From Candidatus Magasanikiibacteriota bacterium (GTDB lineage Bacteria; Patescibacteriota; Patescibacteriia; Magasanikbacterales; UBA922), in NCBI GenBank assembly GCA_016207245.1, contig JACQQA010000012.1, positions 5,722-69,721 of the forward strand: a DNA stretch of 64,000 nt, given 5' to 3'. The notes beneath the pieces are model-generated. The model ran no database searches. It was not told the DNA's origin and saw nothing but the letters and a program-made list of their open reading frames with translations. Position 1 is the first letter of the stretch; the number at the start of each line of letters is the position of its first letter. The position numbers and the translations under genes are program-made. This document shows, piece after piece, positions 3,104-59,592 of the stretch.

Positions 3104-4363
3104 TTATTTAATTTCGGTTTTAATCGTTGTTGTTGTGGCAGGAATAGGAGTATTATTTAAAACCCCGCTGTTTACCGCGTCCACGGCTTTTTTAACTTCA
3201 ACCACTGTTCTCTCCGCCTGTTCCGCTGCTTGAGTGGCATCTTTCACTTTACTTATAGCCTCCAACAAATGATTGCCTTCAACCAAAACTTTTGCCTCCT
3301 CTAATGTTTTCTGGCTTTCCTGTCCTTGCGCGATTGCTTGTTTGCTTACATCGCCCAATACATCTTTAATCGTGGAAGTCGGCAAAACAATCGGAGTAGT
3401 GGAACTTACAACAACTTGAATTGAAGAAGTTGAAATCAAAATCGTTGAAGAAACACTGACCACAACATCAGAAGGCAAGTTGTTGGAAGTGACCGGGGCT
3501 GTTTCAAGCACTTTCACCGTATCCTCCGCCTTGCTTTTCATATCACCGGTGTCTTGCATGGCTACATCAATCTGCGTTTTAACAATTGTTTTAGCATCTT
3601 CATCAGAAACAACTCCGCTGTCATCTTTATTTTTTTGCACAACCGTTTGCACAATATCCAAACTGCTATCTTTGACGATTTGCTTTGTCCCGGCGACATC
3701 AACATCTTTTCCGCCCTGTTCCGCCGCCGCAGTTAATGTCTGATTGATATCTTTCGCGGTTTCTTGCATGCCTTTTACAACTTCAACAATTTTTTCCGGC
3801 TCGGTTTCCACCACTTCTTTAATTACTTCATTGGCAGTTTGAATTGACTTTTCCAATTTTACCATTGCTTCCGCCGCTCTTTGCGGAGCATCATCCTCTT
3901 TGTTTTCAACCACTTTTTTTACTTCTTTGGCTCGGCGAGTGGCAAATTCCAAATGCATCTGCGCTTGTTGGTCTTTCGCGCCGGCGACTGATGTTACCAA
4001 TTCTTGAGTTTTTTCCGCAGCCAACTTCACCCCATAACAAACCTCGCCCGGCAAACAATTTTGCGTCGCGCCCACGCTGGCAATCCAACCGCTGGTCGCT
4101 ATCGCGCCGACTAAGATAAAAATCGCCGTTGGACGCACCACGGAATAAGCTAACCGACCCGGCACAAATATATTAATCGCCTGCCAGACATAGTCAAACC
4201 TAAAACGCGGTTTGTCTTCGGAAACCGTATTATTAATTTGCGACATTAATTTCTTCCGATTTTGCGTAACCCAAGCCGAATCTGGATTTAACCGATCATT
4301 TTTTTCTTTGACTGTTTTTAATTGTGCCTTGAGAATTCGCGGCATAGCCAGTGAATTATTCAA
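3104..4363 (-). CDS. Membrane-anchored protein co-transcribed with the ECF sigma factor; putative anti-sigma factor
   Basis: 419-aa ORF overlapping the sigma factor stop by 8 bp. It has a short cytoplasmic N-terminus, a single TM helix (AIFILVGAIATSGWIASV) and a long K/E/V/T-rich extracytoplasmic region. The anti-sigma role is inferred from its position only. Confidence 0.4.
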   Translation of the reverse strand: MNNSLAMPRILKAQLKTVKEKNDRLNPDSAWVTQNRKKLMSQINNTVSEDKPRFRFDYVWQAINIFVPGRLAYSVVRPTAIFILVGAIATSGWIASVGATQNCLPGEVCYGVKLAAEKTQELVTSVAGAKDQQAQMHLEFATRRAKEVKKVVENKEDDAPQRAAEAMVKLEKSIQTANEVIKEVVETEPEKIVEVVKGMQETAKDINQTLTAAAEQGGKDVDVAGTKQIVKDSSLDIVQTVVQKNKDDSGVVSDEDAKTIVKTQIDVAMQDTGDMKSKAEDTVKVLETAPVTSNNLPSDVVVSVSSTILISTSSIQVVVSSTTPIVLPTSTIKDVLGDVSKQAIAQGQESQKTLEEAKVLVEGNHLLEAISKVKDATQAAEQAERTVVEVKKAVDAVNSGVLNNTPIPATTTTIKTEIK

Positions 4364-4970: not shown

Positions 4971-5264
4971 TGCACCACCTTAATCACTACACCACCGCAC
5001 CACTGCGATGTTTGACTGATTTTCTACTTATCCACAGCTAAATATATAACAAAAACTAACCCCCGCGGGGGAGCCAGACACTGTAGTCAAAATAGTATAG
5101 CATAAGTTAGTGTAAAAGGCAAAAAAATTTTGAAACAGAATGCAAAACACAGATAACAGAATGCAACGAGCGGAGCGCTTGTCAGTAAAGTTAAGAAGAA
5201 AATCACAACTGTATTTTGCTATCCCTGCCTGCCGGCAGGCAGGTGTATTCTGAATTCTAAAAAT

Positions 5265-7804: not shown

Positions 7805-7933
7805 TATCTGTCAATTTATGCCCAAATCGGGTATATTGGCAAGAGGAAGGACCGACGCTCTTTACAATAGATTGGATTCGCCATGTTGGCGAGTCTTGCG
7901 ATTTTCGTAATTTCAAGAAAAGCGAGGTGCGCG

Positions 7934-10399
7934 ATGGAGACTCTGGAAAAGGTCGTGGCGGTCGCAATGCTGTTCCTGTTCGCGATTCTGTTCGTTTCTG
8001 CGGGCTGTTCTACTGGAGTCAAATGGCAGTGCAAGAAGGACTTGGACTGCGACGACGACAATCTCTGCACCAAGGATTCTTGCAGTGCTGGCATCTGCCA
8101 CTTCGCGAAAGTCAAAGGGTGCGACAACCAGCAGGTGTGCGAAGACGACACTTGCGACAAGACTAACGACGGCGAGTCCAAGGTTGACTCGTCCCCGCCT
8201 CCAGACAATCCGTACAATCCACCGCCGGACACTACCACACCTGAACCCAGTCCGGACACAACGGACACTATTGACAGTGGAACGGAGAACGAGGAAGGCG
8301 GGACGACGGAGACGACCGACACCGCCAACCACGATACGGCGGATACGGACGCGACTAATGGAGATGCGGAAGTTGAGAGTGCTGACGAAGAAGTTGCCGG
8401 ACAGGATGCGGAAACGGCGGAAGCGGAGACAACTCAACTGCCGTGTATCACTTGTGACAATGACGTTGAAGCGTCAGATGCTGGTAGTGATACTGCCGGC
8501 AATGGAGCTGAGGCGTCAATCGCTAATCCCGATTCAAGTCCGGACACTACGGACAGCGGAACGGGGAACGATGGGACGGACGGGGACGGAGATGGCGGAA
8601 AAATCGTTCTGCCACTTCAAGATACTGTCGTCGGGACTGATACTCCAACTCCAGATGTTGTGATGACTAACGACAGCAGTGTCGGTCAAAACGACGATGG
8701 CACGGCAGGACTTGTAGAAATCGGAGTTGACAGTGAATCAGAGGTTGGTCAGAACACGGAAACGACGGAAGAGATATCTCAATCGCCGTGCATCTGCGCT
8801 GACGACAACAATCCATGCACCGACGACTTCTGCAACGACGCGAACCAGTGCGTTCACGAATCAATCGTGGACTGTTGCGTCAAGAACGTTGAATGCGACG
8901 ATAGCGATGTCTGCAATGGAGTGGAAACCTGCGACGCGAACAAGTGCGTCGGTGGTGAACCTCTCGTCTGCGACGACTTCAATGTCTGCACCGACGACTA
9001 CTGCGACTCGATGGACGGCTGCGTCTACGAGCCAAACTCAAACCCCTGTGACGATGGCAATGCCTGCACGATTGGCGATGTCTGCGAACAGGGCGAGTGT
9101 GCATACACGGAAACGTGTGAGTGCATCACAAATGCCGAATGCGGAGATGGAAACAAGTGCACCACTGAATCGTGCGTTAGCAACAAATGCAAGTACGATA
9201 ACGTGGGATGCAACGATTCCGACGCTTGCACCACAGACACCTGCGCTCCGGAAATCGGCTGTGTGTTCGCACAGATCGTCGTTGACGACAACGATGCCTG
9301 CACGGACGACAGTTGTAATTCGGACACGGGCGTGGCGCACATCATCAAGGACTGCGATGACAAGAATGCTTGCACTGCGGATTCCTGCGTCGATGGCCAG
9401 TGCGTCCACACTAACACTTGCGAGTGCATCACGAACCTTCAGTGCGATGACGAAGACATTTGCAGTGGAGTGGAAACCTGTGACGACAACAAATGTGTCG
9501 CGGGACAAAAACTCATTTGCAACGACTTCAACGTCTGCACCACCGACACATGCGACCCGGACAAGGGTTGCGTGTACGAACCGGTCAGCGGCTGCTGTAA
9601 GGCAGACGTTGACTGCAACGACCTCAACGAGTGCACCGGCGACGCGTGCGTCAAGTCCAGCGGTGAGTGTGTACACTTCGGCATCATGGGCAACTGTGAT
9701 GATACCAACGAATGCACCACTAACGACGCGTGCAAGGACAGCAAGTGCGTCGGCGGGCCAGCTCCTAGCTGCAATGACAACAATGTCTGCACCGCGGACT
9801 CGTGCGATTCGGCCATCGGCTGTCAGCATTCAGCTGTCAGCGACAACACGTCGTGCGCGGACAGCACAGTCTGCAATGGCGCGGAAACGTGCCAAAGCGG
9901 ACAATGCGAATCTGGCACGCCGCTTGTCTGCGACGACGGAAATCTGTGCACCGACGACTCATGCGACATGGCAGTCGGCTGCCAGCACGCCAACAACTCC
10001 AACCCCTGCGACGATGGCAACGCCTGCACGATTGACGACAGCTGTTCGCAGGGCGCATGTGAATCCGGTGCTCTCAAAAACTGTGGCGACGGGAAGAATT
10101 GCACCCTTGACATGTGCGATGTCAAGCTGGGATGTTTCAATCCTGTCTGGGGTGTTAACCCCAATGATGACTGCGGTAAATGGGACACAGACGGCGACGG
10201 CAAACAGGACAACGGCGCTGACGTGGACTCCGATAACGACGGGGTCTGCGATCCTGGCGAGTCGCAAACCACCGGACAACCTTGCGTCGGGTCGGATAAT
10301 TGCTGGCTAAAAACAAATCCCGCCCAAACCGATACCGACAACGATGGTCTTGGCGACGCCTGCGACCCGGACAAAAATGGAGATGGCATCCCCGACTAA
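7934..10399 (+). CDS. Secreted cysteine-rich repeat protein: CTDC-type (Dictyostelium-repeat / DUF4215 / Myxococcus Cys-rich-repeat-like) repeats followed by thrombospondin-type-3-like calcium-binding repeats
   Basis: At least 13 repeats with CxDxNxCTxDxCxxxxGC spacing (NVCTDDYC, NACTIGDVC, NKCTTESC, DACTTDTC, NACTADSC, NVCTTDTC, NECTGDAC, NVCTADSC, NLCTDDSC, NACTIDDSC, NCTLDMC). The C-terminus DTDGDGKQDNGADVDSDNDGVCDP...DTDNDGLGDACDPDKNGDGIPD has DxDxDG spacing. An acidic T/D/E-rich linker lies between them. Signal peptide METLEKVVAVAMLFLFAILFVSAGC follows an RBS (GAGGTG) before the ATG at 7934; the tracked ORF starts at 7883. GC content is clearly above the window average. Confidence 0.75.
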   Translation: METLEKVVAVAMLFLFAILFVSAGCSTGVKWQCKKDLDCDDDNLCTKDSCSAGICHFAKVKGCDNQQVCEDDTCDKTNDGESKVDSSPPPDNPYNPPPDTTTPEPSPDTTDTIDSGTENEEGGTTETTDTANHDTADTDATNGDAEVESADEEVAGQDAETAEAETTQLPCITCDNDVEASDAGSDTAGNGAEASIANPDSSPDTTDSGTGNDGTDGDGDGGKIVLPLQDTVVGTDTPTPDVVMTNDSSVGQNDDGTAGLVEIGVDSESEVGQNTETTEEISQSPCICADDNNPCTDDFCNDANQCVHESIVDCCVKNVECDDSDVCNGVETCDANKCVGGEPLVCDDFNVCTDDYCDSMDGCVYEPNSNPCDDGNACTIGDVCEQGECAYTETCECITNAECGDGNKCTTESCVSNKCKYDNVGCNDSDACTTDTCAPEIGCVFAQIVVDDNDACTDDSCNSDTGVAHIIKDCDDKNACTADSCVDGQCVHTNTCECITNLQCDDEDICSGVETCDDNKCVAGQKLICNDFNVCTTDTCDPDKGCVYEPVSGCCKADVDCNDLNECTGDACVKSSGECVHFGIMGNCDDTNECTTNDACKDSKCVGGPAPSCNDNNVCTADSCDSAIGCQHSAVSDNTSCADSTVCNGAETCQSGQCESGTPLVCDDGNLCTDDSCDMAVGCQHANNSNPCDDGNACTIDDSCSQGACESGALKNCGDGKNCTLDMCDVKLGCFNPVWGVNPNDDCGKWDTDGDGKQDNGADVDSDNDGVCDPGESQTTGQPCVGSDNCWLKTNPAQTDTDNDGLGDACDPDKNGDGIPD

Positions 10400-10608
10400 A
10401 ACCAACCAGCTCTTTCATAGCCGAAGCAATCCTTCCCGCTTCGGCTCCAATCCCTTTTGTTTATTTTAAAAGTAAACAGAAGAGAACCCCGCCCTGAGCT
10501 TGCCGAAGGACGGGGTTTTATTTATACTTGACTTATTGACCAAATTATTTTATAATTTCCGCAATAAAACAATGACACGCATTCGTCTCGCTTCGCGAGC
10601 CGAAACAA

Positions 10609-10680
10609 GCCGCCATCGTCTAGTGGTTAGGACACGAGGTTTTCAACCTTGTAACAGGGGTTCGATTCCCCTTGGCGGTA
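10609..10680 (+). tRNA. tRNA-Glu (anticodon UUC)
   Basis: GCCGCCATCGTCTAGTGGTTAGGACACGAGGTTTTCAACCTTGTAACAGGGGTTCGATTCCCCTTGGCGGTA. The acceptor stem pairs (G1-U72 wobble), the anticodon loop TTTTCAA gives UUC, and the T-loop GGTTCGATTCC is canonical. CCA is not encoded. Confidence 0.85.
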
Positions 10681-10687
10681 CAACCTT

Positions 10688-11782
10688 ATGCTCATCCTCG
10701 GCATTGAATCTTCCTGCGACGACACTTCAATCGCACTGATTGACGCGTCAGCGCGCGGTTTTAAAATACTGGCGGAAAAAACCGCGAGCCAAATTGAGGT
10801 GCACAAAAAATACGGCGGGGTGGTGCCGGAAATCGCGGGGCGGTGCCATGCGGAGCAAATTTTACCCTTGATTGAGAAAGTAATGAAACCCTTCGACTCC
10901 GCTCAGGGTAAACCGGATATAATCGCTGTGACATCAGGACCTGGTTTAATCACCGGCTTAATGGTGGGAGTGGAAGCGGCGAAGACATTGTCTTATTTGT
11001 GGAATATTCCTGTTGTTGCTGTCAATCATATTGATGGCCATATTCACAGTGTGGAGATTCAAAATTCAAAGAAACAAAAAACAAACAATATCAAATATCC
11101 CTGCCTCGCCGGCAGGCAGGCAATATCAAATATCCAATATCCCGCACTTGCGTTGATTGCGAGCGGCGGGCATACGGAGTTAATTTATATAAAAAAAGAA
11201 AACCATTATAAAAAAATCGGCACGACGTTGGATGATGCGGCCGGAGAATGTTTTGACAAAGTGGCAAAGTTGTTGGGGTTTGATTATCCGGGCGGACCAA
11301 AAATTTCTAAATTTGCTGAAACCGGCAATCCGCAGGCAATTAAATTTCCGCGTCCGATGTTAGACAAAAATAATTTTGATTTCAGCTTTGCAGGATTAAA
11401 AACATCCGCGCTTTATTGGCTTAGCGACAATTCTCCTAAAACCTATCACCTAAAACCTAAAACCTTAACAGACTTCTGCGCCAGTTTTGAACAAGCAATC
11501 ATAGATGTCCTCGTAGGCAAAACTCTCAAGGCAGCGGGAAAATACCAACCAAAAACTATTATCATGGGTGGAGGAGTAGCCGCCAATAAAAAATTACGAG
11601 AAACCTTGAAAGAACAAACCAACACACTTATTCCTAATTCATTATTCCTAATTCCTCAATTCGCCTACGCCATGGACAACGCCGCCATGATCGCTGTCGC
11701 CGGATATTATCACGCTATAAAAAAAGACTTCACGCCGTGGCAAAAACTCAAAGCCGATCCGGAGTGGGAGATAACGCGATAA
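10688..11782 (+). CDS. tsaD: tRNA N6-adenosine threonylcarbamoyltransferase TsaD (Kae1/Gcp family)
   Basis: N-terminal GIESSCDDTSIALI and the metal-binding HIDGHIHS motif. Carries an in-frame insertion encoded by a repeat element at 11087-11142. Confidence 0.85.
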   Translation: MLILGIESSCDDTSIALIDASARGFKILAEKTASQIEVHKKYGGVVPEIAGRCHAEQILPLIEKVMKPFDSAQGKPDIIAVTSGPGLITGLMVGVEAAKTLSYLWNIPVVAVNHIDGHIHSVEIQNSKKQKTNNIKYPCLAGRQAISNIQYPALALIASGGHTELIYIKKENHYKKIGTTLDDAAGECFDKVAKLLGFDYPGGPKISKFAETGNPQAIKFPRPMLDKNNFDFSFAGLKTSALYWLSDNSPKTYHLKPKTLTDFCASFEQAIIDVLVGKTLKAAGKYQPKTIIMGGGVAANKKLRETLKEQTNTLIPNSLFLIPQFAYAMDNAAMIAVAGYYHAIKKDFTPWQKLKADPEWEITR

Positions 11783-17111: not shown

Positions 17112-19667
17112 TTATACCACACTTTTCACAATAGTGGTACGCGTCTCCGCCCCAAACTTCTTCTTCAACACTTCTCCAACTCTCACATGCGCCGCGTCAA
17201 CTTCCGCGGATTCGAGTGTCTTGCTGTCTGAACGATAAGTAATGTGATACGCCAGACTCTTTTTACCGGCCGGTAAATTCTTGCCCTCGTAAACGTCAAA
17301 TATTTCCACGCTAGCAATCAGCCGGTCAACTTTTTTAAGCTCAAAAATAATTCGCGCGTGTTCAACTTTTTTATCAACCACAAAAGCAATGTCGCGAATT
17401 ACTTCCGGATAAACCGGCAATGGTTGATAGCGCAAAGAATTTTTTAAAACCAACAATAATTTTTCTAAATCCACTTCCGCCACTACCACTCGCTCGTTAA
17501 TTCCCAAACGCTCGGAAAATGACGGGCTGATCTCGGTAATCGCACCCACGCCTTCGCCATTTACTAAAATTTGCGCCTGCCTGCCCCTGTGGATAACTTT
17601 TCCGAGTTCATGGATTGCCGGCTTTAAAACCACGACACAACCAAGACGATCCAACACACCTGTCAAAGCCGCGGAAAGCTCATAAAATGGCGTTAAAACG
17701 CCTTTACCGGCAAAAACCAGACCCAAATACAGCGGCTGGCCGGGCAATAATTCATCGCTGTTTCCGGAAACCCGCAAACCGGCGACCTCGGAATTAAACA
17801 CTCTGCCGATCTCAAACATTCTTACCGCGTCAAAACGATGCAAATTCACTTCCGCGTTTTCCAACAGGCCGGGCCACAAACTGCGGCGCAAAAACGGACG
17901 ATCTTTAGCCACCGGATTGTCCAACTCTATTAAATCAGCGGGGTCAATTCCCAATCTCTCCAATAATTGTGGCGATACGAAAGAATAGTTATACACTTCG
18001 CTGAAACTAAATTCCAGCGCCAAAATTTCTTTTATTCTTCTTTCTAAACTTCTCAACTCGTTTTTAGGCGGAGGAACAATTGGAAACTTTGGCAATGATG
18101 TTGGAATATTGCCATAACCGTAAATCCGCGCCACTTCTTCCACCAAATCTTCGGCAATGGAAATATCTTTTGTCGCGCGCCAGGTTGGAATTTTAACCAA
18201 CAAAACATCTTTTTTTTCTTTAACTTCAAAATCAAGATCGGATAAAATTTTAACCGCCTGTTTCTTTTCTATTTCCAAACCGATTTTTTTAGATAAAAAC
18301 TCCAGCGGCAATTCAATCGGGCCTTGCTGTAAATGAAAATCTTTCACGTCAATAATTTTACTGGCGATTTTCGCGCCCGGGCACAATTCCAATGTCAATT
18401 CCAGCGCTTTTCGCAAAGCCAGTTCGCAATTGTTCGGGTCCAAACTCTTTTCAAACCGCGCCGAGCTGTCAGTGCGCAAACCAAGTTTGACGGAAGTCCG
18501 GCGCACATTCGCGGCATTAAAATTCGCTGATTCATAAATTACAGCAGTCGTCTCATCTTCAACTCCGCTTTCCCGCCCGCCCATCACCCCGGCCAACGCT
18601 ATCGCCTTATCATTTGAACTAATCACCAAATTCTCCGGTGTCAACTCAAACTCTTTCCCGTCCAAACTAACAAACCTCTCTCCCCCTTCCGCCCTTCGTA
18701 CAACAATCGTGATTTTTGATTTTTGATTTTTGATTTTTGATTTATCAAATGCGTGCATCGGCTGTCCCAAATCCAACATTACATAATTGGTGATATCCAC
18801 AATATTATTTATCGGCCGCAGACCGACTGCCAGCAATTTTTTTTGCAGCCAATCCGGCGACGGCGCGACTTTAATCCCCTCAATCGCCACCGCCATATAG
18901 CGAGGACATAATTTTTTATCCTCAACTCGTACGGACAGGTCGCGACCTGTCCCTATCTTGCAATCTTTAATTTTATAATTCACTAATTTTTTATTAAACA
19001 ACGCTCCCACTTCTCTCGCCATTCCATAATGTCCCCACAAATCCGGCCGATTGGACAAACTTTTGTTGTCAATTTCAAAAATAATGTCATCCAATCCGAG
19101 GACTGCGGACAACGCCTGCCCGCCGATGAGGTGGGGACTACCGACGATTTTGTCATTCCCGTGTAAACGGGAATCCATCGCGTTCGATTTCTGGATCCCC
19201 GCCTCCGCGGGGACGACAAATGAGAGGTCTAGAATCTCTTTCTCGTCTTTTAAGGGAAACCTGTCTCCCAATCCAATCTCGGTTGACGCGCAAATCATGC
19301 CGAATGATTCCACGCCGCGGATTTTCGCTTTTGCCAATTCAACCAATTCGCCTTCGCCGTGCCAGCGCACTTTCGCGCCAATTCTGCCAAACGCGACTTT
19401 CATCCCCTCTTTCACATTTGAGCCGCCGCAAACCACTTGCCAATCTTGCGCGCCGTCATTAACTATACAAACTTTTAACTTATCCGCGTCAGGATGTTTA
19501 ACAACTTTTTTTACCAAACCAACAACAATGTTATCCAAATCTTTTCCTTGCTTAACAATTTTTTCCACCTCCACCGTGCTCATTGTCAATTTCAACGCCA
19601 ACTCTTCCGGAGTGAGAGAGTTTGGCAGATCAATGTATTGTTTGAGCCAGTTAAAACTTATTAACAT
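17112..19667 (-). CDS. pheT: Phenylalanine--tRNA ligase beta subunit
   Basis: 851 aa; N-terminus MLISFNWLKQYIDL and a B3/B4 region (DDIIFEIDNKSLSNRPDLWGHYG). Contains apparent in-frame repeat-element insertions at 19152-19217, 18950-18969 and 18711-18745. Confidence 0.9.
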   Translation of the reverse strand: MLISFNWLKQYIDLPNSLTPEELALKLTMSTVEVEKIVKQGKDLDNIVVGLVKKVVKHPDADKLKVCIVNDGAQDWQVVCGGSNVKEGMKVAFGRIGAKVRWHGEGELVELAKAKIRGVESFGMICASTEIGLGDRFPLKDEKEILDLSFVVPAEAGIQKSNAMDSRLHGNDKIVGSPHLIGGQALSAVLGLDDIIFEIDNKSLSNRPDLWGHYGMAREVGALFNKKLVNYKIKDCKIGTGRDLSVRVEDKKLCPRYMAVAIEGIKVAPSPDWLQKKLLAVGLRPINNIVDITNYVMLDLGQPMHAFDKSKIKNQKSKITIVVRRAEGGERFVSLDGKEFELTPENLVISSNDKAIALAGVMGGRESGVEDETTAVIYESANFNAANVRRTSVKLGLRTDSSARFEKSLDPNNCELALRKALELTLELCPGAKIASKIIDVKDFHLQQGPIELPLEFLSKKIGLEIEKKQAVKILSDLDFEVKEKKDVLLVKIPTWRATKDISIAEDLVEEVARIYGYGNIPTSLPKFPIVPPPKNELRSLERRIKEILALEFSFSEVYNYSFVSPQLLERLGIDPADLIELDNPVAKDRPFLRRSLWPGLLENAEVNLHRFDAVRMFEIGRVFNSEVAGLRVSGNSDELLPGQPLYLGLVFAGKGVLTPFYELSAALTGVLDRLGCVVVLKPAIHELGKVIHRGRQAQILVNGEGVGAITEISPSFSERLGINERVVVAEVDLEKLLLVLKNSLRYQPLPVYPEVIRDIAFVVDKKVEHARIIFELKKVDRLIASVEIFDVYEGKNLPAGKKSLAYHITYRSDSKTLESAEVDAAHVRVGEVLKKKFGAETRTTIVKSVV

Positions 19668-19668: not shown

Positions 19669-20733
19669 TCAGAATTGTTTTAAAAAACGCAGATCCCCGC
19701 CCTGTAAATGTCTAATATCATCAATACAATACCTTTGCATCACCAAACGAGTCATGCCTAAGCCAAAAGCGAAACCCGTCCATTCTTTCGGATCCAAACC
19801 GCCGTATGCCAAAACTTTCGGATGCACCAGACCGCACGGCATTGTCTCAATCCAGCCTGAATGTTTGCACGCCCCACAGCCAACACCGCCGCAGATCAAA
19901 CATTTTATATCCAATTCAAAACCGGGTTCAACAAATTGAAAATGCCCGGGACGCAAACGCGTCTCAACATCGCGCTTAAACACTCCTCGCAATAATTCCT
20001 TCATCACGCCGATTAGGTGAGAGACAGAAATATTTTTATCCACAACCAAACCTTCCAATTGACAAAAAGTGTGCTCATGCGCCGCGTCAGTCGCTTCGTT
20101 GCGGAAACAACGCCCAGGCACCACCATCCGAATTGGCGCGCCATACTTCTCCAAAGCGCGCACCTGCATAGACGATGTTTGGGTGCGCATTACCCAATCA
20201 GAATGGCTTTTGATATAAAAAGTGTCTTGGGTATCGCGAGCCGGATCGTCAGATGGCATATTAAGCGTGGTAAAATTATAATACTCGCTCTCCAACTCCG
20301 GCCCATCCAGCACCATAAAACCCATGGAAGTAAATAAATCTTCCAAATTATTCTGAACTAAAGTGTTGGGATGCAAATGTCCGGCCTCTTTTGCCGGTAA
20401 CTTTGGCTGAGTAACGTCAATAGTTTCTTTTTCTAAAATATCTCCCATTTCCGACATTTTAATTTCCTCTTTTTTCTTCGCGAACACTTCTTCCAGTTCA
20501 TGTTTAACTTCATTTGCTAATTTGCCAAACTCCTGCCGCGCTTCAACAGAAAGGTCTTTCAAATTTTTCATCGCCTGCGTCAGCTCGCCGGAACGGCGGG
20601 AAAAAAATCTTTGTTCCAATTCTTCCAACTGCAAGACATTCTTAATCTCCACCAAACTCTTCAAAAAATCCTTTTTAATTTTTTCTAATTGTTCCTTCAT
20701 AAATAAAGATACTAATGCTTTTTTATTTGTCAT
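19669..20733 (-). CDS. pheS: Phenylalanine--tRNA ligase alpha subunit
   Basis: Class II motifs FRNEATDAAHEHTFCQLEG and GFAFGLGMTRL. The tracked start at 20733 lies inside a tandem repeat element; the ATG at 20698-20700 (MKEQLEKIKKDF...) is the more likely start. Confidence 0.9.
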   Translation of the reverse strand: MTNKKALVSLFMKEQLEKIKKDFLKSLVEIKNVLQLEELEQRFFSRRSGELTQAMKNLKDLSVEARQEFGKLANEVKHELEEVFAKKKEEIKMSEMGDILEKETIDVTQPKLPAKEAGHLHPNTLVQNNLEDLFTSMGFMVLDGPELESEYYNFTTLNMPSDDPARDTQDTFYIKSHSDWVMRTQTSSMQVRALEKYGAPIRMVVPGRCFRNEATDAAHEHTFCQLEGLVVDKNISVSHLIGVMKELLRGVFKRDVETRLRPGHFQFVEPGFELDIKCLICGGVGCGACKHSGWIETMPCGLVHPKVLAYGGLDPKEWTGFAFGLGMTRLVMQRYCIDDIRHLQGGDLRFLKQF

Positions 20734-20798
20734 TCCCGCGAAAGCGGGAACCCAGAAATCGCGTTGTCATTCCCGCGAAAGCGGGAACCCAGAAATCG
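20729..20798. repeat. Tandem direct repeat (2 x ~37 bp) of hairpin unit GTCATTCCCGCGAAAGCGGGAACCCAGAAATCGCGTT
   Basis: Two near-identical units, each a GTCAT-led hairpin (TCCCGC-GAAA-GCGGGA). Member of the GTCAT...ATGAC hairpin element family. Confidence 0.8.
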
Positions 20799-24195: not shown

Positions 24196-24244
24196 GACAG
24201 GGCTTGCCCGCCGCCTGCCTGCCGACGAGGCAGGATGAGGAGGG

Positions 24245-25042: not shown

Positions 25043-25603
25043 ATGATAATTATAAAACAAAAATTACACCACCGAAAAAATAATCGCCTGCGTGGCTACG
25101 ATTATTCATCGAACGGTTTGTATTTCATAACAATTTGCGTCAAACACCGATTAAAACACCTCGGCGGTGTTTGGAACGCAAAAATGTGCGTCAATCGATT
25201 CGGTTCAATCGTTTTGCAACAATGGAATTGGTTGGCCGAACAATATCCGTATATTATATTGCACGAATTCGTCGTCATGCCAAATCACGTACACGGTATT
25301 GTGCAAATTGATTCATCATTGTTATCGTGTAGGGACAGGTCGCGACCTGTCCCTACACCGAATGCCGACACCACAATCAACCATATAACAAATAAAAAAA
25401 CGAAAATAAAACCATTGTCCGAAATCGTCGGCGCGTTCAAAACCACATCATCAAAATCAATCCATCGGAATGGTTTCCCACAATTCCAATGGCAACGATC
25501 ATTTTACGACCATATTATCCTTGACGAAAAATCATATTTTGCCATCACCAATTATATAAAACAAAATCCCGTCATTTGGTGGCGGGATAGAAATAATTTG
25601 TGA
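25043..25603 (+). CDS. REP-associated tyrosine transposase (RAYT)-like / IS200-IS605 TnpA-family HuH Y1 transposase
   Basis: GYDYSSNGLYFITICVKHR (N-terminal RAYT-like block), HuH motif VMPNHVHGIV and catalytic Tyr block YFAITNYIKQNPV. A 28-bp perfect palindrome (25329-25356) sits between the HuH and Tyr motifs. Confidence 0.7.
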   Translation: MIIIKQKLHHRKNNRLRGYDYSSNGLYFITICVKHRLKHLGGVWNAKMCVNRFGSIVLQQWNWLAEQYPYIILHEFVVMPNHVHGIVQIDSSLLSCRDRSRPVPTPNADTTINHITNKKTKIKPLSEIVGAFKTTSSKSIHRNGFPQFQWQRSFYDHIILDEKSYFAITNYIKQNPVIWWRDRNNL

Positions 25604-29689: not shown

Positions 29690-29755
29690 TGAAAAAGGGG
29701 ATCCAAAAATCACACACGATGGATTCCCGTTTCCACGGGAATGACAATTCATAAA
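29690..29755. repeat. Complete two-hairpin MITE-like element (GTCATCCCCTTGAAAAAGGGGATCCAAAAATC ... GATTCCCGTTTCCACGGGAATGAC)
   Basis: Terminal inverted repeats GTCAT/ATGAC; each half is a GC-stem hairpin. Lies downstream of clpC. Confidence 0.8.
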
Positions 29756-37145: not shown

Positions 37146-37754
37146 CTACTCAAGTATCCCATCCAAATTCACATCATACAAAATCTCCTCTTGCACCAAA
37201 CGATAGCTAATCAACTCTTCCGGCGCGAACCAGTGTTTGATTTCCATTTCCGCTTCAGGAACCGAACCGGAGGCGTGAATCAAATTGCGAATGGCGCGGT
37301 CGTCTACATCGCTCATTTCGTAAGAATCCAAAACATAATCGCCGCGAATTGACCCGACGTCAGACGTCAGCGGTTCTGTCCCGCCGACCAGTTTGCGGAT
37401 AATTTTCACCGCGTGCGCGCCCTCCCAAACCATCGCCACGACCGGTCCGCAAGAAAGATATTTTTTTAAATTAATTAAAAGTTTATCGGTAATTTCAAAC
37501 GGATTTTCGGTCGGCGGAGTTAAGCCTTTATCTTTGTAGCCCTTGATCGTCTTCTCACCCGTCACTTTGCGCCAATTCGAATCTAAAGTATAATGCTGTT
37601 CCACCTGCTCCGGCGTCGGCACTATCATCTTTAACGCGATCAGTTTCAAGCCGATTGATTCAAAACGTTTAATCACCTCGCCGATAAGCGAACGTTGGAT
37701 TCCGTCCGGTTTGATTATCACCAAACTTTTTTCTTTTTTGCCTGTGTAGGACAT
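37146..37754 (-). CDS. ndk: Nucleoside diphosphate kinase (with lineage-specific insertions)
   Basis: LVIIKPDGIQRSLIGEVIKRFE, GPVVAMVWEG, the active-site region NLIHASGS and the C-terminal WF. At 202 aa it is ~50 aa longer than typical Ndk. Confidence 0.8.
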   Translation of the reverse strand: MSYTGKKEKSLVIIKPDGIQRSLIGEVIKRFESIGLKLIALKMIVPTPEQVEQHYTLDSNWRKVTGEKTIKGYKDKGLTPPTENPFEITDKLLINLKKYLSCGPVVAMVWEGAHAVKIIRKLVGGTEPLTSDVGSIRGDYVLDSYEMSDVDDRAIRNLIHASGSVPEAEMEIKHWFAPEELISYRLVQEEILYDVNLDGILE

Positions 37755-46625: not shown

Positions 46626-47705
46626 CTAATTTTGTGCGGATTTCCTCAACTTACACACAAAAAACCCCTCAATCTCCTTTGTCGGCATTATCCGCAGGGC
46701 TTTTTTGACAACATCTGGATTTACCACCTTATTTTTCCACAACTTCACACACGACAATCGCCGAATATCTAATACTCCAATATCCAATATCTCGCCATCG
46801 CCATTCCGTTCCAAAAATTTCGTCATCTGCAATTCGTTCTCCTCCGGCGCGAAGGTGCAAGTGGAATAAACTAAAATCCCGCCGGGTTTTAGCGCGCTCC
46901 AGGCGGCGAGCAAAAGCCCCCATTGCTTATACGTCATTTCTTTTATTTTTTGCTCTTTCCAATAACCGTGGGTTTTCGGCTCGCCGGCGATAAACCGCGC
47001 TTCGGCGCTGCAGGGGGCGTCAAGCAATATCTTGTCAAAATATTCCGGATACTCGCGGCACAGAGCGCCGCCGTGCTCCATCCTCAACGAAAACCGCCAA
47101 CTGTCATTGCGAGCGACCGAAGGGAGCGCGGCAATCCAGTATCCGTCCTGGATTGCTTCGTCCCCCGCCATGGCGGGGTCCTCGCAATGACAGACGATAC
47201 CGAGCGCCTCCATATTATGCTTTAACTTAAAAAATCTAATTTTGTTATTATCATTCGCCACTAATTCACCTCTTAGCCCTCCGCCCAAGGCGGATCCGTC
47301 TGGGTCGGACATCAACGCCGCGATCTGCGAAGTTTTGCTTCCGGGCGCGGCGGTCAAATCCAAAACTTTTTCTCCGGGTTGGGGATCCAAAACCAACGGC
47401 GGAATCATACTCGCCAAACTTTGGATATAAATTTTTCCCTCATTATAAATATCCAAATCCGTTAATTCTCTTTTGCTTTTGTTTAACAAAATAAACGCGT
47501 CTTTATACCACGAAACTTGTCTGATCTTAAATCCTCGCTCAACGAGTGATGTAGTGATGATGTGATGCGGTGATTTAAGTGTATTAACGCGAAAAGTAGT
47601 AGAACGTTCAACAAAAGTTTTCTCAATCTCGCGAAACAAAGAAACGCCAAACATCTCTGTCAGGCGCTCTAAAAATTTTTCCGGCAGACTACGATCATGG
47701 AACAT
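46626..47705 (-). CDS. rRNA (cytosine-C5) methyltransferase, RsmB/RsmF (NOL1/NOP2/Sun) family
   Basis: SAM-binding DLTAAPGSKTSQIA, catalytic DAPCS and YSTCT motifs. Contains three apparent in-frame repeat-derived insertions (46764-46791, 47103-47191, 47283-47297). Confidence 0.8.
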   Translation of the reverse strand: MFHDRSLPEKFLERLTEMFGVSLFREIEKTFVERSTTFRVNTLKSPHHIITTSLVERGFKIRQVSWYKDAFILLNKSKRELTDLDIYNEGKIYIQSLASMIPPLVLDPQPGEKVLDLTAAPGSKTSQIAALMSDPDGSALGGGLRGELVANDNNKIRFFKLKHNMEALGIVCHCEDPAMAGDEAIQDGYWIAALPSVARNDSWRFSLRMEHGGALCREYPEYFDKILLDAPCSAEARFIAGEPKTHGYWKEQKIKEMTYKQWGLLLAAWSALKPGGILVYSTCTFAPEENELQMTKFLERNGDGEILDIGVLDIRRLSCVKLWKNKVVNPDVVKKALRIMPTKEIEGFFVCKLRKSAQN

Positions 47706-50993: not shown

Positions 50994-52406
50994 ATGTCAT
51001 TAATCAAAGACTCGGCGCGTAACTCGGTAATTTTACGGTTAATTTTAATTGGTGTGCTGTCGCTTTTACTCCTAATTCCTACCGGCATGATCAGCTCTAT
51101 AGTTTATGAGCGGGAATCTCGAAGCCAGGAAGCGATTAATGAGGTGAGTTCAAAATGGAGCAACGAACAAACTGTCGCCGGCCCGATTTTAACTATTCCC
51201 TACAAAAAGTATCTTAAAGACAAAGATAACCCAACCAAAGTAATTGAAACTGTTTCTTACGCGCATTTTTTGCCGGAACGTTTGGACATCAGCGGAAACA
51301 TAGAACCGAAAATGCTCAATCGCGGAATGTATGATGTCGTGGTATATAATTCCAAACTTGATTTAAGCGGCGGATTCAAAGCGCCGGATTGGGACAAATT
51401 GAATATCAACCCGACTGACACGTTTTTGGATCAAGCCACCGTATCTGTTAATATTCCGGACATGCGCGGAATAAAAGAAAAAATCGCCTTTGCCTGGAAT
51501 GGCGTGGCGATTAATTTAGAACCGGGAGTTCAGGGAGATATCGCCAAGTATTTAGATTTGACCGTGCCGATTCAATATAACGACACCGAACGATTCGACG
51601 AAGCGATGCCGACAAAAATAATGCCGCCGGACGCTGTTTCCAGGGGCGGATCCGGAGTCAGCGCCAAAGTTCCGGTTGGCAGTGATGGCGCGTATAATTT
51701 CAAATTAGTATTGGATCTAAACGGCAGCCAAAGATTAAATTTCCTGCCATTAGGCAGTGAGACTAATGTGGAAGTAAAATCAAGCTGGAATAATCCGAGT
51801 TTTGATGGAACATTTTTACCGGATGAACGTAATGTTACTAGCTCCGGCTTTACCGCGAAATGGAAAGTCCTGCAATTCAACCGAAATTATCCGCAAAGTT
51901 TCTCGGAATTATCCAACTCCAATTTAATTGGCTCGGCATTTGGCGTAAAACTGATGGTGCCGGTGGATCAATATCAAAAAACCTCCCGCGCGGTAAAATA
52001 CGCTATTTTGACCATCGCGCTGACTTTCCTGATATTTTTCTTTGTGGAAATATTCAACCGCACCCGCATTCATCCTTTCCAATATATTTTGGTTGGTCTG
52101 GCGCTGGTGCTGTTTTTCACTCTCCTGCTTTCCATTTCCGAACATTTGGGATTCAACTACGCTTATCTGACTTCCGCCGCGTCAATTTTGCTGATGACAT
52201 CTCTCTATACAAAAACCGTATTCAAAAACACCCGCGCGACAGTAATTTTATCTCTAATTCTTGTCGCTATTTACACCTTTATCTACACCATTCTGCAACT
52301 GCAAGATTACGCGCTCTTAATCGGCAGTATCGGCCTATTCTTCATCTTGGCCGCGGTGATGTTCATCTCGCGGAAGATTAATTGGTACGAAGTGGCAAAT
52401 CAGTAG
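50994..52406 (+). CDS. creD: Cell-envelope integrity inner-membrane protein CreD family
   Basis: N-terminal TM plus IVYERESRSQEAINEVSSKWSNEQTVAGPILTIPY resembles the CreD N-terminal signature. A large periplasmic region is followed by several C-terminal TM helices; 470 aa. Confidence 0.55.
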   Translation: MSLIKDSARNSVILRLILIGVLSLLLLIPTGMISSIVYERESRSQEAINEVSSKWSNEQTVAGPILTIPYKKYLKDKDNPTKVIETVSYAHFLPERLDISGNIEPKMLNRGMYDVVVYNSKLDLSGGFKAPDWDKLNINPTDTFLDQATVSVNIPDMRGIKEKIAFAWNGVAINLEPGVQGDIAKYLDLTVPIQYNDTERFDEAMPTKIMPPDAVSRGGSGVSAKVPVGSDGAYNFKLVLDLNGSQRLNFLPLGSETNVEVKSSWNNPSFDGTFLPDERNVTSSGFTAKWKVLQFNRNYPQSFSELSNSNLIGSAFGVKLMVPVDQYQKTSRAVKYAILTIALTFLIFFFVEIFNRTRIHPFQYILVGLALVLFFTLLLSISEHLGFNYAYLTSAASILLMTSLYTKTVFKNTRATVILSLILVAIYTFIYTILQLQDYALLIGSIGLFFILAAVMFISRKINWYEVANQ

Positions 52407-53023
52407 ATTGCCTCCACACCCCAATCAACCACTTTCCTTTCCAACCTCTCAACTAAAAAATTATAAATAAAATTATGTAATTCTCTGTGTTCTGTTAACT
52501 GTGTTATGTGTTTTGAAATAACCGGCCAATCTTGATTCTTCATAATTTCCAAATCACGCAAAAAGCGGAACTCAACGCCAGACGCAGTTATATCATACCC
52601 TAAACAATTTAACAATTTGACAATGAAACCATCTAATAACTTAAGATTTAAGATTGAAGATTTAAGATTGACGAACTCTAACCACGATTTTAATAAATCA
52701 AAAATTCTCTCATCCTTCTCACCAACATGCAGAATTTTATCTAAAAGCGAAACCACATAACCGGCGGCTAAACTTTTTTGCAAATCTTGTCTGATATTAA
52801 CAAAGTAATTTATCGGCTGGACTTTGGTGAGGTGGTCAATCCCCTTTCCGGGCGCGATTTCAATATCAACCAAAGAAAACGGCTCCAAATGAGCCGAGTT
52901 TTTAGAAATAATTTTTTTAACCCCGCGAGCCATCAGCTCTACTTTGCCTCTTTCTTTGGTGTAGCAACTTATGATCTGGTCGGATTCGCGGAAGTCTCGC
53001 CTAGTCAAGACAATAGCTTGCAT
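52400..53023 (-). CDS. recO: DNA repair protein RecO
   Basis: MQAIVLTRRDFRESDQIISCYTKERGKVELMARGVKK (RecO N-terminal OB-fold signature); 207 aa. Confidence 0.7.
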   Translation of the reverse strand: MQAIVLTRRDFRESDQIISCYTKERGKVELMARGVKKIISKNSAHLEPFSLVDIEIAPGKGIDHLTKVQPINYFVNIRQDLQKSLAAGYVVSLLDKILHVGEKDERIFDLLKSWLEFVNLKSSILNLKLLDGFIVKLLNCLGYDITASGVEFRFLRDLEIMKNQDWPVISKHITQLTEHRELHNFIYNFLVERLERKVVDWGVEAIY

Positions 53024-53025
53024 AA

Positions 53026-54273
53026 CTAAAATTTATAGAAGAATGAAGAAACCACCAACACCGCTGTCGCCGCAATTATCCCAACAACCGTCAGCCACGC
53101 GATAACATTCCCGATAGGTTTATTAACATGCTCACCCATGATATTTTTATTATTTATAATCTTCAAAACAAAAATTAAAATAATCGGCAGTAAAATTCCG
53201 TTGACGTCTTGCGACAACAACATTACCCTGACTAATGGCAAGCCGGGAATGAGAACCAGCAGAGCCGGCAAGGCGATTGACAACAAAATTATGCCGTAAA
53301 AAATCCGCGCTTCCCGCCATTTGCGGTCAAAACCATATTCCCAGCCGAACGCCTCGCAAATGGCATAGCCGGTGGCGACCGGCAGAATAAACGCGCCGAG
53401 CATTGACGCCACGAATAATCCGAAGCCGAATAAAAATTTAGCAAACTGGCCGGCGATTGGCGCCAAGGCCATGGCCGCGTCTTTCGCGTCAGTGATTCTA
53501 ATGCCGGCTTTATATAATGTGTAAGCAGTGCTGATAATGATAAAAAAACTGACAATATCAGTGATAAAAGCGCCAATAAATACCTCTGCCTTTTCAATTT
53601 TATAATGCCTAAGATTAAGACCCTTGTCAACCACGTATGATTGAATAAAAAACTGGCCCCAAGGTGTGATCGTGGTGCCGATTAAAGCGATCATGGTGAG
53701 CAAAAACGGAGCGCTGAATTCCAAAGTCGGCTTGATTAAAGCCAGCGCGGCCTCGCTAAAGTCCGGCTTGATGATAAAGCCGTTGATAATATACACGAGA
53801 TAAAACGCGGAAAAAACCAAAAATATTTTTTGCGTGGTTTTAAACGAACCCTTGTACAGAATAAACCACACCGCGATCGCCGACATCGGCACCGCTATAT
53901 ATTTGCTGACGCTGAAAATTGAAAAAGCCGAACCAATGCCGGCAAATTCCGCGGTCATAGTGCCGAGATTGGCGATTAGCATCACCAGCATGGCAAAAGT
54001 AGTCCAACGTACGCCAAAATTTTCGCGAATCACTCCACCCAGCCCCTGACGAGTAACCAAGCCGATGCGCACGCCCATTTCCTGCGTTACCGCCAGAGCG
54101 AAAGTAATCAAAAACAGCACCCACAGCATTTTAACGCCAAAATGCGCGCCCACGACAGAATAAGTGCTGATCCCGCCGGCGTCATTGTCCGCGTTCGCGG
54201 CAATAATGCCCGGTCCGATAACCGAGAAAAAAAACAACAACTTTAACCAAAAATGTTGTAATCTTTTCCCCAT
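53026..54273 (-). CDS. mntH: NRAMP-family divalent metal cation transporter (MntH-like)
   Basis: GPGIIAANADNDAGGISTYS near the N-terminus (NRAMP DPGN-type motif) and ~11 predicted TM helices; 415 aa. Confidence 0.65.
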   Translation of the reverse strand: MGKRLQHFWLKLLFFFSVIGPGIIAANADNDAGGISTYSVVGAHFGVKMLWVLFLITFALAVTQEMGVRIGLVTRQGLGGVIRENFGVRWTTFAMLVMLIANLGTMTAEFAGIGSAFSIFSVSKYIAVPMSAIAVWFILYKGSFKTTQKIFLVFSAFYLVYIINGFIIKPDFSEAALALIKPTLEFSAPFLLTMIALIGTTITPWGQFFIQSYVVDKGLNLRHYKIEKAEVFIGAFITDIVSFFIIISTAYTLYKAGIRITDAKDAAMALAPIAGQFAKFLFGFGLFVASMLGAFILPVATGYAICEAFGWEYGFDRKWREARIFYGIILLSIALPALLVLIPGLPLVRVMLLSQDVNGILLPIILIFVLKIINNKNIMGEHVNKPIGNVIAWLTVVGIIAATAVLVVSSFFYKF

Positions 54274-54279
54274 AATAAA

Positions 54280-55500: not shown

Positions 55501-55575
55501 TTAAAAGTGTGCAAGTTAATAGGTGTATAAGTTTATAAGTTACAAAACTTACCCACTTATACACTCATATACCTA

Positions 55576-55968
55576 CTAACTTGACTTTGCCAAATAAGCT
55601 TCTAATATAATCATAGCAGACTTTTCATCTCTACTTGCCCCCACTACTCCACTATCCGTCCTATCCGCTTGCACGGAAGTGAAACGCTCGTCAACAAAAT
55701 CTACGGAAATTTTTATTTCTTTTTTCAATTCATCAGCAAATTTTCTAACCCGCCTGGTATTATCATTCTCTTTTCCATCCAACCCCAGCGGCAATCCCAC
55801 CACCAGTTTATCAATTTTTTCTTTTTTTATCAATTCCGCAACTTGGTCTTTTAATCTTCCGTTCCTTTGATCTCCAACCACTCCAAACGGCAAAACAACC
55901 TTAAGCGCTGTGTCCACCCACGCTAAGCCAATTTTCTTTGATCCATAATCCACTCCTAGTATGTTCAT
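55576..55968 (-). CDS. ruvX: Holliday junction resolvase-like RuvX/YqgF
   Basis: Starts MNILGVDYGSKKIGLAWVD (YqgF signature). The tracked ORF extends to 56046; the ATG at 55968 overlaps the map stop by 4 bp. Confidence 0.75.
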   Translation of the reverse strand: MNILGVDYGSKKIGLAWVDTALKVVLPFGVVGDQRNGRLKDQVAELIKKEKIDKLVVGLPLGLDGKENDNTRRVRKFADELKKEIKISVDFVDERFTSVQADRTDSGVVGASRDEKSAMIILEAYLAKSS

Positions 55969-56795: not shown

Positions 56796-56830
56796 AAAAA
56801 GTTTAAAAGTGATCAGTCGGTCAGCGTTTA

Positions 56831-58042: not shown

Positions 58043-58172
58043 ACTTAAAACTTTTTAGAAATTTGTTAATGTTTTAAGTATACTGAAATGATTAATTACT
58101 GTCAAGCGCCGGCTGTTTTCCTTACCCAGGCAATGTGGGGGCGGCGGTTTCAGTTAGAAATTTTAAAAAATA

Positions 58173-58225
58173 AAAACTGCGGTCGCCTCTGGTAAACCAG
58201 AGAGGACCGCAGTGGGGTTAACTGT
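58173..58225 (-). terminator. Rho-independent terminator of the radical-SAM-like gene
   Basis: Minus strand CTGCGGTCCTCTCTGGtttaCCAGAGGCGACCGCAG followed by TTTTTATTTTTT. Confidence 0.6.
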
Positions 58226-58287
58226 CTTAAGTATAACAAGCCCGCAGATGCTTGTCAAGTGCGTCAAATGCCTTGCGTGGATAAGCA

Positions 58288-59584: not shown

Positions 59585-59592
59585 GGTATTAT

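Follow-up and report, generated by a model that had tools for sequence, protein, structure and literature searches.

Short palindromes inserted in frame into housekeeping genes are known from the repetitive extragenic palindromes (REPs) and the Rickettsia palindromic elements (RPEs) (PMC3733652; review PMC10969869). We analyzed a 64-kb stretch of DNA (hereafter, the window) from Candidatus Magasanikbacteria, a lineage of the Patescibacteria or Candidate Phyla Radiation (CPR), in which the tsaD gene carries a 21-nt GC-rich hairpin within a tandem array of 7-nt repeats. Like intragenic REPs and RPEs, which lie in frame in unrelated housekeeping genes, the tsaD hairpin is a short palindrome that is tolerated in a loop and adds peptide. 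RPEs, however, are about 100–150 bp long, encode a conserved peptide and carry CGTC, and classical REPs carry GTAG or CGTC, whereas the tsaD hairpin is a 20/21-nt element that is untagged, has no conserved flank and shows none of these RPE characters. In addition, it resides in Patescibacteria and is embedded in heptamer arrays, an arrangement that has not been described for REPs or RPEs.

Tandem heptamers also have precedents. Heptanucleotide simple sequence repeats (SSRs) are reportedly over-represented in bacteria according to a 2007 survey by Mrazek and colleagues. The bacterial examples (cyanobacterial STRR; GGGNATC of Xanthomonas and Nostoc) show a period-7-specific tandem excess, as found here, but are mainly intergenic and consist of few genome-specific units, whereas the arrays of the window are locus-specific, AT-rich and in frame in essential genes. 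Such excess has been ascribed hypothetically to polymerase slippage that depends on how large a DNA segment the polymerase binds (PMC4692102). PMC5861425, PMC2884548 and PMC3116915 describe cyanobacterial small dispersed repeats (SDRs) as about 20 nt long, thought to be mobile and present in heptamer-rich Nostoc genomes, and report SDR5 inserting into the HIP1 palindrome. The SDRs belong to another phylum, have other sequences and are described as intergenic. Elhai et al. in 2008 (Genome Res 18:1484) reportedly gave SDR lengths of 21–27 nt, and are also said to have placed SDRs within tandem heptamers. Fast-evolving tandem repeats in the open reading frames (ORFs) of Borg elements create intrinsically disordered regions (PMC9879509). 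To that extent Borg repeats resemble the tsaD arrays, which also lie within an ORF and add disordered peptide, but they belong to archaeal extrachromosomal elements, whereas the unit here is 7 nt and the hosts are chromosomal essential bacterial genes. In Borg coding sequences, the repeat units are reportedly multiples of three in length.

Narrow searches combining taxon and topic returned no relevant paper on heptamer or tandem repeats in Patescibacteria/CPR, or on REP, RAYT or REPIN in CPR. The locus combines intragenic REP/RPE biology with a lineage-specific expansion of heptamer repeats. Three features appear to be new: the density at which 7-nt arrays occur in frame in patescibacterial essential genes, a family of 20/21-nt palindromes without a tag that is spread across many contigs including phage contigs, and the oriented, in-phase placement of the hairpin within heptamer arrays.

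The relevant features of tsaD are as follows.
10688–11782, plus strand: tsaD coding sequence (CDS), 364 amino acids (aa), intact ORF (PDB TsaD matches, E 3e-75; 120 orthologues named TsaD)
11087–11100, plus strand: left-hand stretch of heptamers, AATATCA AATATCC, whose final C is shared with the hairpin and which joins the right part when 21 nt are removed
11100–11120, plus strand: GC-rich hairpin CCTGCCTCGCCGGCAGGCAGG, an imperfect palindrome of 21 nt that encodes (P)CLAGRQA and whose boundary is ambiguous by 1 nt
11122–11142, plus strand: right-hand stretch of heptamers, AATATCA AATATCC AATATCC, period 7, 3.1 copies, continuing into conserved YPALALIA codons
11435–11465, plus strand: second tsaD heptamer array, CCTAAAA x4.4 (HLKPKTL), in frame
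11630–11662, plus strand: third tsaD heptamer array, ATTCCTA x4.6 (TLIPNSLFLIPQ), in frame (alignment to 6nak_B)

The original prediction, made from the letters of the DNA, described a repeat–palindrome–repeat structure at 11087–11142, AATATCAAATATCC-CTGCCTCGCCGGCAGGCAGG-CAATATCAAATATCCAATATCC, translated as NNIKYPCLAGRQAISNIQYP. The letters agree, and the ORF is intact and in frame across the segment. The palindrome is an inserted element, as had been proposed, but is 21 nt long (11100–11120) and not 20 bp. Alignment to the solved structure of Thermotoga TsaD (6nak_B) left residues 127–147 without a counterpart, and this identifies the segment, which lies between the HxxGH and SGGHT motifs, as a real insertion. 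An AlphaFold2 model built from a 58-sequence alignment had a mean predicted local distance difference test (pLDDT) score of 90.9; the sole segment with pLDDT below 50 was residues 129–144, that is, the insert. The invariant residues H114, H118 and S159-G160-G161-H162 were kept. The insert is best read from this model as a tolerated surface loop that is predicted to be disordered.

The syntenic contig of the closest relative (L052; gene order tsaD-prs-dnaE-...-pheT-pheS) provided an empty site. Its tsaD loop has flanks identical to those of the window and an uninterrupted five-unit AATATC[A/C/G] array from which the 21 nt CCTGCCTCGCCGGCAGGCAGG are absent, and this presence or absence is the only difference between the two loops. 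The hairpin therefore entered or left an existing array without duplication or loss. A second case came from L053/P0005, in which the tsaD hairpin, CCCGCCTCATCGGCGGGTAGG, is related but has CCCGCC/GGCGGG for CCTGCC/GGCAGG, a compensatory change in the stem, and is placed in a different register of an AATATCC array and in a different reading frame from the window copy. A near relative, P0008, has exactly 7 aa fewer, and the comparison of these sequences points to a second hairpin gain or loss. At the loop of the second tsaD array, L052 has a 17-aa palindrome-derived insert (KKRDSSTSLRSARNDIG) in place of the array. As a whole, the dnaE genes of the window and L052 are 94% identical with 1 indel, and the tsaD genes are 81% identical with 6 indels, every one of them in a repeat-bearing loop; repeat turnover is fast and concentrated in loops. 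No other record of the exact TsaD sequence of the window was found.

Heptamer arrays were not confined to this loop. Those in other genes of the window for which coordinates are given are listed here.
56436–56469, minus strand: AATATC[A/C] x4-5 in map (MetAP, Peptidase_M24, CDS 55965–56795), translated KNIKYPISNIKS
46764–46791, minus strand: array in a gene for an RsmB/F-like methyltransferase (CDS 46626–47705), coding strand GATATTG, translated GEILDIGVLDI
18707–18747, minus strand: AAAATCA x5 (KSKIKNQKSKI) in the B3_4 domain of pheT (CDS 17112–19667)
52639–52671, minus strand: in-frame array in recO (CDS 52400–53023)
The in-frame heptamer arrays of the window thus lie in tsaD (three), pheT, recO, map, the RsmB/F-like gene and the end of rplO. 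Exact runs of at least 9 matches numbered 6, 8 and 8 for periods 7, 14 and 21, and 0–4 for other periods, with 0.1–0.5 in shuffled sequences; Tandem Repeats Finder assigned period 7 to 19 of 62 rows. With at least about 2.5 head-to-tail 7-nt copies and an excess over both chance and other periods, the arrays qualify as heptanucleotide SSRs. The 14-mer AATATCMAATATCC, allowing at most one mismatch, matched the window 7 times against 0.14 expected, and none of 100 shuffles reached 7. These matches fall in tsaD, map (56441–56468, minus strand) and the RsmB/F-like gene (46779–46792), so the occurrence of the AATATC motif in three genes exceeds chance, as had been claimed. We compared the densities of exact arrays among three sets of loci.
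Magasanikbacteria-like loci (414 kb): 8.0 period-7 arrays per 100 kb
Other CPR loci (158 kb): 6.3 period-7 arrays per 100 kb
Non-CPR TsaD loci (273 kb): 0.4 period-7 arrays per 100 kb
Arrays of other periods occurred at 0–1.2 per 100 kb in the Magasanikbacteria-like loci, except for period 14, a multiple of 7, at 3.4. These data indicate that heptamer arrays are a lineage-wide feature specific to period 7.

Ortholog sets of 120 listed sequences each for TsaD (mostly Candidatus Magasanikbacteria/Patescibacteria), MetAP and the REP-associated tyrosine transposase (RAYT) homologues considered below were then compared. The TsaD loop between HxxGH and SGGHT varied from 19 to 63 residues, the basal length being 19–22 aa. 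The extra residues were mostly translated 7-nt tandem repeats, for example ISNIQYP from AATATCC x3; LPITNYQ would correspond to TTACCAA x3, as back-translated from the peptide. Other loop peptides (PASSAGRQ, SERSLVVPPRDE and IPAFAGMT) were translated GC-rich palindromes. The heptamer unit of the loop was ATTTTCA in L002, AAATCAA in L004, GAAATCC in L006, GATACAA plus AATATCC in L001, AATCTCC in L012 and GATGTCA in L017. Since the units vary between loci, the arrays grow locally and not by transposition. The array-free orthologue L008 has a native seed, GAATATCC(A)GC, at the loop end, coding for E/Q-Y-P-A, and AATATCC matches native codons in both proteins (...[Q/K/E]-Y-P in TsaD and M-E-Y-P in MetAP). 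On these sequences, the tsaD and map arrays most plausibly expanded in place from native seeds that resemble each other.

In MetAP, 14 residues located between VDVGAVY and QGLYGD are extra relative to 1o0x_A, which substantiates the proposed in-frame insertion in map; another solved MetAP, 4km3_A, has a longer natural insert at the same loop. This loop is hypervariable among the orthologues, with 4, 7 or 14 residues basally and up to 32 in total, includes lineage-specific heptamer peptides and begins with M-[EQ]-[YW]-P. The NIKYPISNIK array was confined to orthologues of 86–100% identity. In the RsmB/F-like gene, the motif is present and in frame as GEILDIGVLDI, as had been described, but the AATATC unit is on the non-coding strand and the array adds little length relative to 1ixk_A.

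The hairpin is likewise one member of a family, of which the 64-kb window contains four (5224, 11100, 19114 and 24214). Its other members in the window are the following.
5224–5243, strand not assigned: perfect 20-nt palindrome CCTGCCTGCCGGCAGGCAGG, intergenic, folding at −8.0 kcal/mol
19114–19136, minus strand: tsaD-type hairpin in pheT, CCCCACCTCATCGGCGGGCAGGC (SPHLIGGQA), near-identical to the L053 tsaD hairpin CCCCGCCTCATCGGCGGGTAGGC
24214–24234, minus strand: 21-nt copy CCTGCCTCGTCGGCAGGCAGG, intergenic, one mismatch from the tsaD copy
These three copies uphold the proposal of an inserted element with further copies. The first and the last had been foreseen, at 5223–5244 and 24199–24222, respectively, and both exist, but at the corrected positions given above, the last as a 21-mer on the minus strand. 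Folded in context as DNA, the tsaD copy forms a hairpin of about −7.4 kcal/mol, has the size and stem-loop of a REP, and reads CCTGCCT(N)GCCGGCAGGCAGG; the GTAG or CGTC end tag of REPs (PMC3733652) is absent. Flank profiles revealed no conserved tetranucleotide over 194 + 30 ends, and neither a conserved target motif nor an extended stem; the stem stopped at the 20-mer in 68 of 97 copies.

A scan of metagenomes, in which exact matches were required and family diversity was consequently under-sampled, placed the 20/21-mer in more than 120 contigs among the matches listed, with GC contents of 0.29–0.71. It was also present in 58 stretches of predicted viral contigs (L178–L235), some with several copies, a distribution that hints at phages carrying, and perhaps spreading, the palindrome. 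One 29.5-kb predicted viral contig has six copies, and IMGVR_UViG_3300037242_000417 is among the palindrome-bearing viral contigs. Both motif and palindrome occur elsewhere, the encoded peptides are not conserved in distant orthologues and the host frames are intact, and on all these points the original prediction withstood what could have overturned it. The same element is read in three frames, as PALPAGR, LPRRQAG or CLAGRQA, and two 21-nt subtypes, with a central C or T, recur across contigs. Many 21-nt copies lie inside long ORFs, and the 20-nt form is also present within long open frames of low-GC contigs; reading frame looks like a survival filter for hairpin copies. In L106, a contig of GC 0.60, a RAYT homologue (3386–4137) is broken by the 20-nt CCTGCCTGCCGGCAGGCAGG (3593–3612), exactly between ...HVDIGE and FVVMPNHVH, with a frame shift of 2 nt, and is a pseudogene or in need of frameshifting. 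The 20-nt palindrome was also observed in or beside tRNA-like sequence in L143 (664–683 and 839–858), L156, L095 and L108. The L143 palindrome follows ...GCTCAATGGTAGA within the D-arm in a tRNA cluster, and ARAGORN did not call the palindrome-interrupted copies as tRNAs.

Hairpins and arrays were associated well beyond the tsaD loop. A period-7 array lay at most 28 nt away from 15 of 124 hairpin copies, whereas of 2371 control positions taken from those contigs 17 had such a neighbour (odds ratio 19, p 3e-12), and no other period was enriched around hairpins. For 7 of the 30 21-mers, exact removal of the element fused the flanks into an in-phase array (offset 0), whereas other offsets gave 0–2. 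The viral contigs replicated the association (4/67 vs 6/1305, p 9e-4), again for period 7 only. All seven in-array 21-mers had the same orientation relative to the C-rich array strand (p 0.016), against 11 of 23 copies outside arrays. The hosts of the in-array copies, named by eye from ORF translations without a family search, were a Mur ligase, another TsaD (at a distinct loop), LigA (with three copies), TrmD, PurL and a GT2 glycosyltransferase.

A RAYT gene and the REP that it carries are also present in the window.
25043–25603, plus strand: RAYT/TnpA_REP gene, 186 aa, with the motifs NHVH (HuH), WQ and YIKQNP
25327–25358, plus strand: GTGTAGGGACAGGTCGCGACCTGTCCCTACAC, a palindrome perfect over 32 nt that constitutes an in-frame double-foot REP (GTAG...CTAC) within the RAYT gene (−15.1 kcal/mol, z −6.75)
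18930–18955, minus strand: double-foot REP core GGGACAGGTCGCGACCTGTCC in pheT, in frame, translated KIGTGRDLSVRV
The RAYT ORF scored 59.8 bits (E 2.7e-16; cut-off 80) against NCBIfam NF047646, in a match split in two by the insert, and 22.7 bits against 23 for Pfam Y1_Tnp. Its homologues are annotated RayT, and the protein is identical to HY569_03000 of a Candidatus Magasanikbacteria metagenome-assembled genome. A PDB sequence search returned no significant match, probably owing to the splitting of the domain by the insert. Quentin et al. 2018 described TnpA_REP subclass 2.4, mainly from Cyanobacteria and Bacteroidetes and without mention of Patescibacteria, as having double-foot GT[AG]G...C[TC]AC REPs that are inserted inside tnpA_REP itself (PMC6006769); the corresponding group 4 RAYTs of Bertels are common in Cyanobacteria. 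The RAYT of the window agrees with this subclass in its three motifs and in its internal double-foot REP (GTAGGGACAGGTCGCGACCTGTCCCTAC), which lies between NHVH (aa 81–84) and YIKQNP (aa 171–176) and recurs in pheT with degenerate feet (ATAG...GTAC). Most of the listed RAYT homologues, Pontibacter and other Bacteroidota among them, carry GTGRDLSL or CRDRSRPVPT at the corresponding loop, that is, this palindrome in two frames and sometimes repeated. The double-foot REP inside RAYT is thus already established, and the present example comes from Patescibacteria. On either side of the RAYT gene of the window, no flanking REPs were observed. From its sequence, the RAYT is a candidate enzyme for REP mobilization. 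The tsaD hairpin differs from the subclass 2.4 REP in sequence and in the absence of a GT[AG]G foot, and because it has no GTAG/CGTC tag, a link between the hairpin and the RAYT can only be inferred.

We propose, as the probable though far from certain explanation, that heptamer arrays grown by slippage and REP-like hairpins are both translated as disordered loops. The AATATC[A/C] array would have grown locally, by expansion of the slipped-strand type, from native loop-end codons (...Q/K-Y-P = AATATCC) in a lineage strongly prone to period-7 arrays. Within genes, only net length changes divisible by three would survive, and through this frame filter arrays would accumulate in the loops of housekeeping proteins (TsaD, MetAP, PheT, RecO, the RsmB/F-like methyltransferase and L15). 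CCTGCCTCGCCGGCAGGCAGG would be a copy of the dispersed 20/21-nt REP-like element, inserted as a discrete unit into the existing array; entry without target duplication or loss would leave the array in phase, and a length of 21 nt would keep the reading frame. The 21-residue TsaD segment would then be translated as a disordered loop, with the HxxxH metal motif and the SGGHT motif untouched, and the tsaD insert would most likely be neutral, selfish DNA. The copying route may be single-strand-DNA hairpin chemistry of the HUH/Y1 type, for which the RAYT of this genome is a candidate, and the arrays may expose single-strand targets.

Several points weigh against this proposal. The seed argument leaves the array in the RsmB/F-like gene, which has the opposite orientation, unexplained, and the slippage origin is deduced from array anatomy. 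Four Logan contigs of the same population, from different samples and sequencing runs, were 100% identical to window 52641–62101, the map array included, and show no sign of ongoing change in copy number. Arrays are thus not hypermutable at that scale; in this limited sampling of four consensus assemblies over 52641–62101 no strain-level variation in copy number was present, and with all host genes in frame as well, the arrays do not behave as phase-variable contingency loci. One of these four contigs (L175) stops precisely at the start of the recO heptamer array (window 52641), possibly an assembly break caused by the repeat. The REP of the RAYT is a different sequence, and the CCTGCC hairpin is without the tag that RAYTs recognize (PMC3733652). 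Translation of the tsaD segment is a prediction from conservation of the frame. Finally, the association of arrays and hairpins could partly reflect shared tolerance, both persisting only at permissive sites, since its controls were random positions, mostly in constrained coding DNA, that were unmatched for tolerance.

That last point underlies the alternative that survives best, although we regard it as unlikely, namely that arrays and hairpins are independent and merely meet, without targeting, in insertion-tolerant spots such as loops and intergenic DNA. The unmatched controls leave room for it, the same loops hold an array in one close relative and a palindrome in the other, and the 21-mers seem to concentrate in ORFs and the 20-mers outside them, a split that selection on frame predicts. 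Yet arrays, numbering 8 per 100 kb at about 25 nt apiece, make up about 0.2% of the sequence and contain 7 of the 30 21-mers, although intergenic DNA offers a far larger tolerant space; the uniform orientation within arrays, compared with that outside, and the replication in viral contigs also speak against it. A separate and doubtful reading holds that one single-strand-DNA editing activity, perhaps an HUH/Y1 enzyme of the subclass 2.4 type or its partner, works in 7-nt steps and makes both arrays and hairpins. If so, the activity would be common to lineages as distant as Patescibacteria and heterocystous Cyanobacteria, where heptamer repeats, SDRs and group-4 RAYTs coexist, new peptide loops would be continually written into essential proteins, and phages would carry the hairpin between hosts.

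We give little credence to an origin in situ, in which the palindrome is made de novo at forks stalled in arrays, by fold-back or template switching from a (CCTG)n-like seed, and its recurrence is convergent. The 20-mer is indeed a simple-sequence palindrome, (CCTG)2CC/GG(CAGG)2, occurring in contigs of widely different GC content, but the AT-rich flanks contain no CCTG seed, identical sharp-ended 20/21-mers recur in unrelated contexts, and so do the two 21-nt subtypes across contigs. Selection for function, either of the peptide loops (interaction, solubility) or of RNA or DNA hairpins regulating translation or replication, appears very improbable. Arrays on the coding strand are mostly G-poor and yield peptides rich in K/N/Q/S/T/P, and the NIKYPISNIK array has been retained in the closest MetAP orthologues; however, sequence, length and element type vary at one loop among close relatives, a single hairpin is read in several frames, the loop is predicted to be disordered and the hosts are functionally unrelated.

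We find still less credible the original prediction that a hairpin resembling a MITE (miniature inverted-repeat transposable element) is flanked by a 14-bp target-site duplication, and that one mobile AATATC family was inserted into three genes, namely tsaD, map and the one like rsmB. The palindrome is indeed bordered by a 14-bp direct repeat, and the unit is common to the three genes far beyond expectation. Because L052 has the whole array without the hairpin, however, the flanking repeat is the already existing tandem array and not a duplication; this empty site rules out a MITE with target-site duplication in tsaD, and an element of 20–21 nt without such a duplication does not fit MITEs, which are defined by terminal inverted repeats plus a target-site duplication. 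Hairpin copies outside arrays had no flanking direct repeats. The single mobile family was likewise rejected, since arrays of many other units, differing by locus and lineage, occur genome-wide and in relatives, and the unit corresponds to the native YP codons of TsaD and MetAP. Cycles of insertion and excision leaving 7-bp duplications were also considered as the source of arrays and discarded, the non-array copies being without 7-bp flanking repeats. Least probable of all, to the point of being negligible, is that the tsaD segment (NIKYPCLAGRQAISNIQYP) is an assembly artefact or is left untranslated by ribosomal bypass or RNA-level excision, because, although bypass of GC-rich hairpins within AT-rich genes is known from the mitochondria of some yeasts, the in-gene inserts have lengths divisible by three and no stop codons, frame-breaking 20-mers yield frameshifted genes, as in the L106 RAYT, independent assemblies agree, and relatives from other studies carry like inserts.

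Patescibacteria have tiny genomes whose essential genes are strongly constrained. Their housekeeping proteins nonetheless hold fast-turnover segments derived from two very small kinds of repeat, one of which, having a 7-nt unit, would be expected to be prone to frameshifts. Under the proposal favoured here, this accounts for the low-complexity peptides (NIKYP, KSKIKN, PAGRQ, GTGRDLS...) in the proteins of these genomes and cautions against reading repeat-derived peptides as functional motifs or annotation errors. The inserts may also serve as markers of recent strain divergence. The clean, in-phase and oriented placement of an untagged 21-nt hairpin within heptamer arrays offers a concrete entry point to the copying of the smallest bacterial repeats, and a candidate RAYT in the same genome together with the presence of the hairpin in viral contigs makes the copying, and the preference for period 7, testable.

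Among the other repeat-bearing genes, pheT has at least four repeat-derived inserts in the window. Four of its loops differ from those of L052: one has a palindrome against none, one has two unlike palindromes, the GGGACAGGTCGCGACCTGTCC site is occupied by an (AAATTAC)x5 array in L052, and the KSKIKNQKSKI loop has a heptamer array of a different unit and a different length. In L052, the ORF calls divide pheT (8358–10792) into two parts that differ in frame, and this points to a frameshift or an error of assembly somewhere from residue ~333 to 433. Window 20727–20798, at the 5′ end of pheS, is a perfect 2 x 37-nt tandem, TTGTCATTCCCGCGAAAGCGGGAACCCAGAAATCGCG, with a hairpin-forming unit related to the AGIQ/MDSR/GND palindrome in pheT (19168–19201) and at 29697–29728. 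The RsmB/F-like gene has a further feature of this type.
47122–47178, minus strand: nested GC-rich palindromes (CHCEDPAMAGDEAIQ...), including CCCCGCCATGGCGGGG at 47163–47178
Their core, CCCGCCATGGCGGG, is also intergenic at 3009, 33400 and 36836, and a large extra segment of the protein (residues ~137–213), which includes the nested palindromes (CHCEDPAMAGDEAIQ...IAALPSVARND), splits the Pfam and PDB matches.

Rfam at gathering thresholds detected three tRNAs in the whole window and no other known RNA family. Positions 7883–10399 encode an 838-aa cysteine-rich product, probably a surface protein, in which six Dicty_CTDC repeats are accompanied by long stretches of acidic low complexity. At 37146–37754, a nucleoside diphosphate kinase Pfam match is split in two stretches, which may reflect another in-frame insert.

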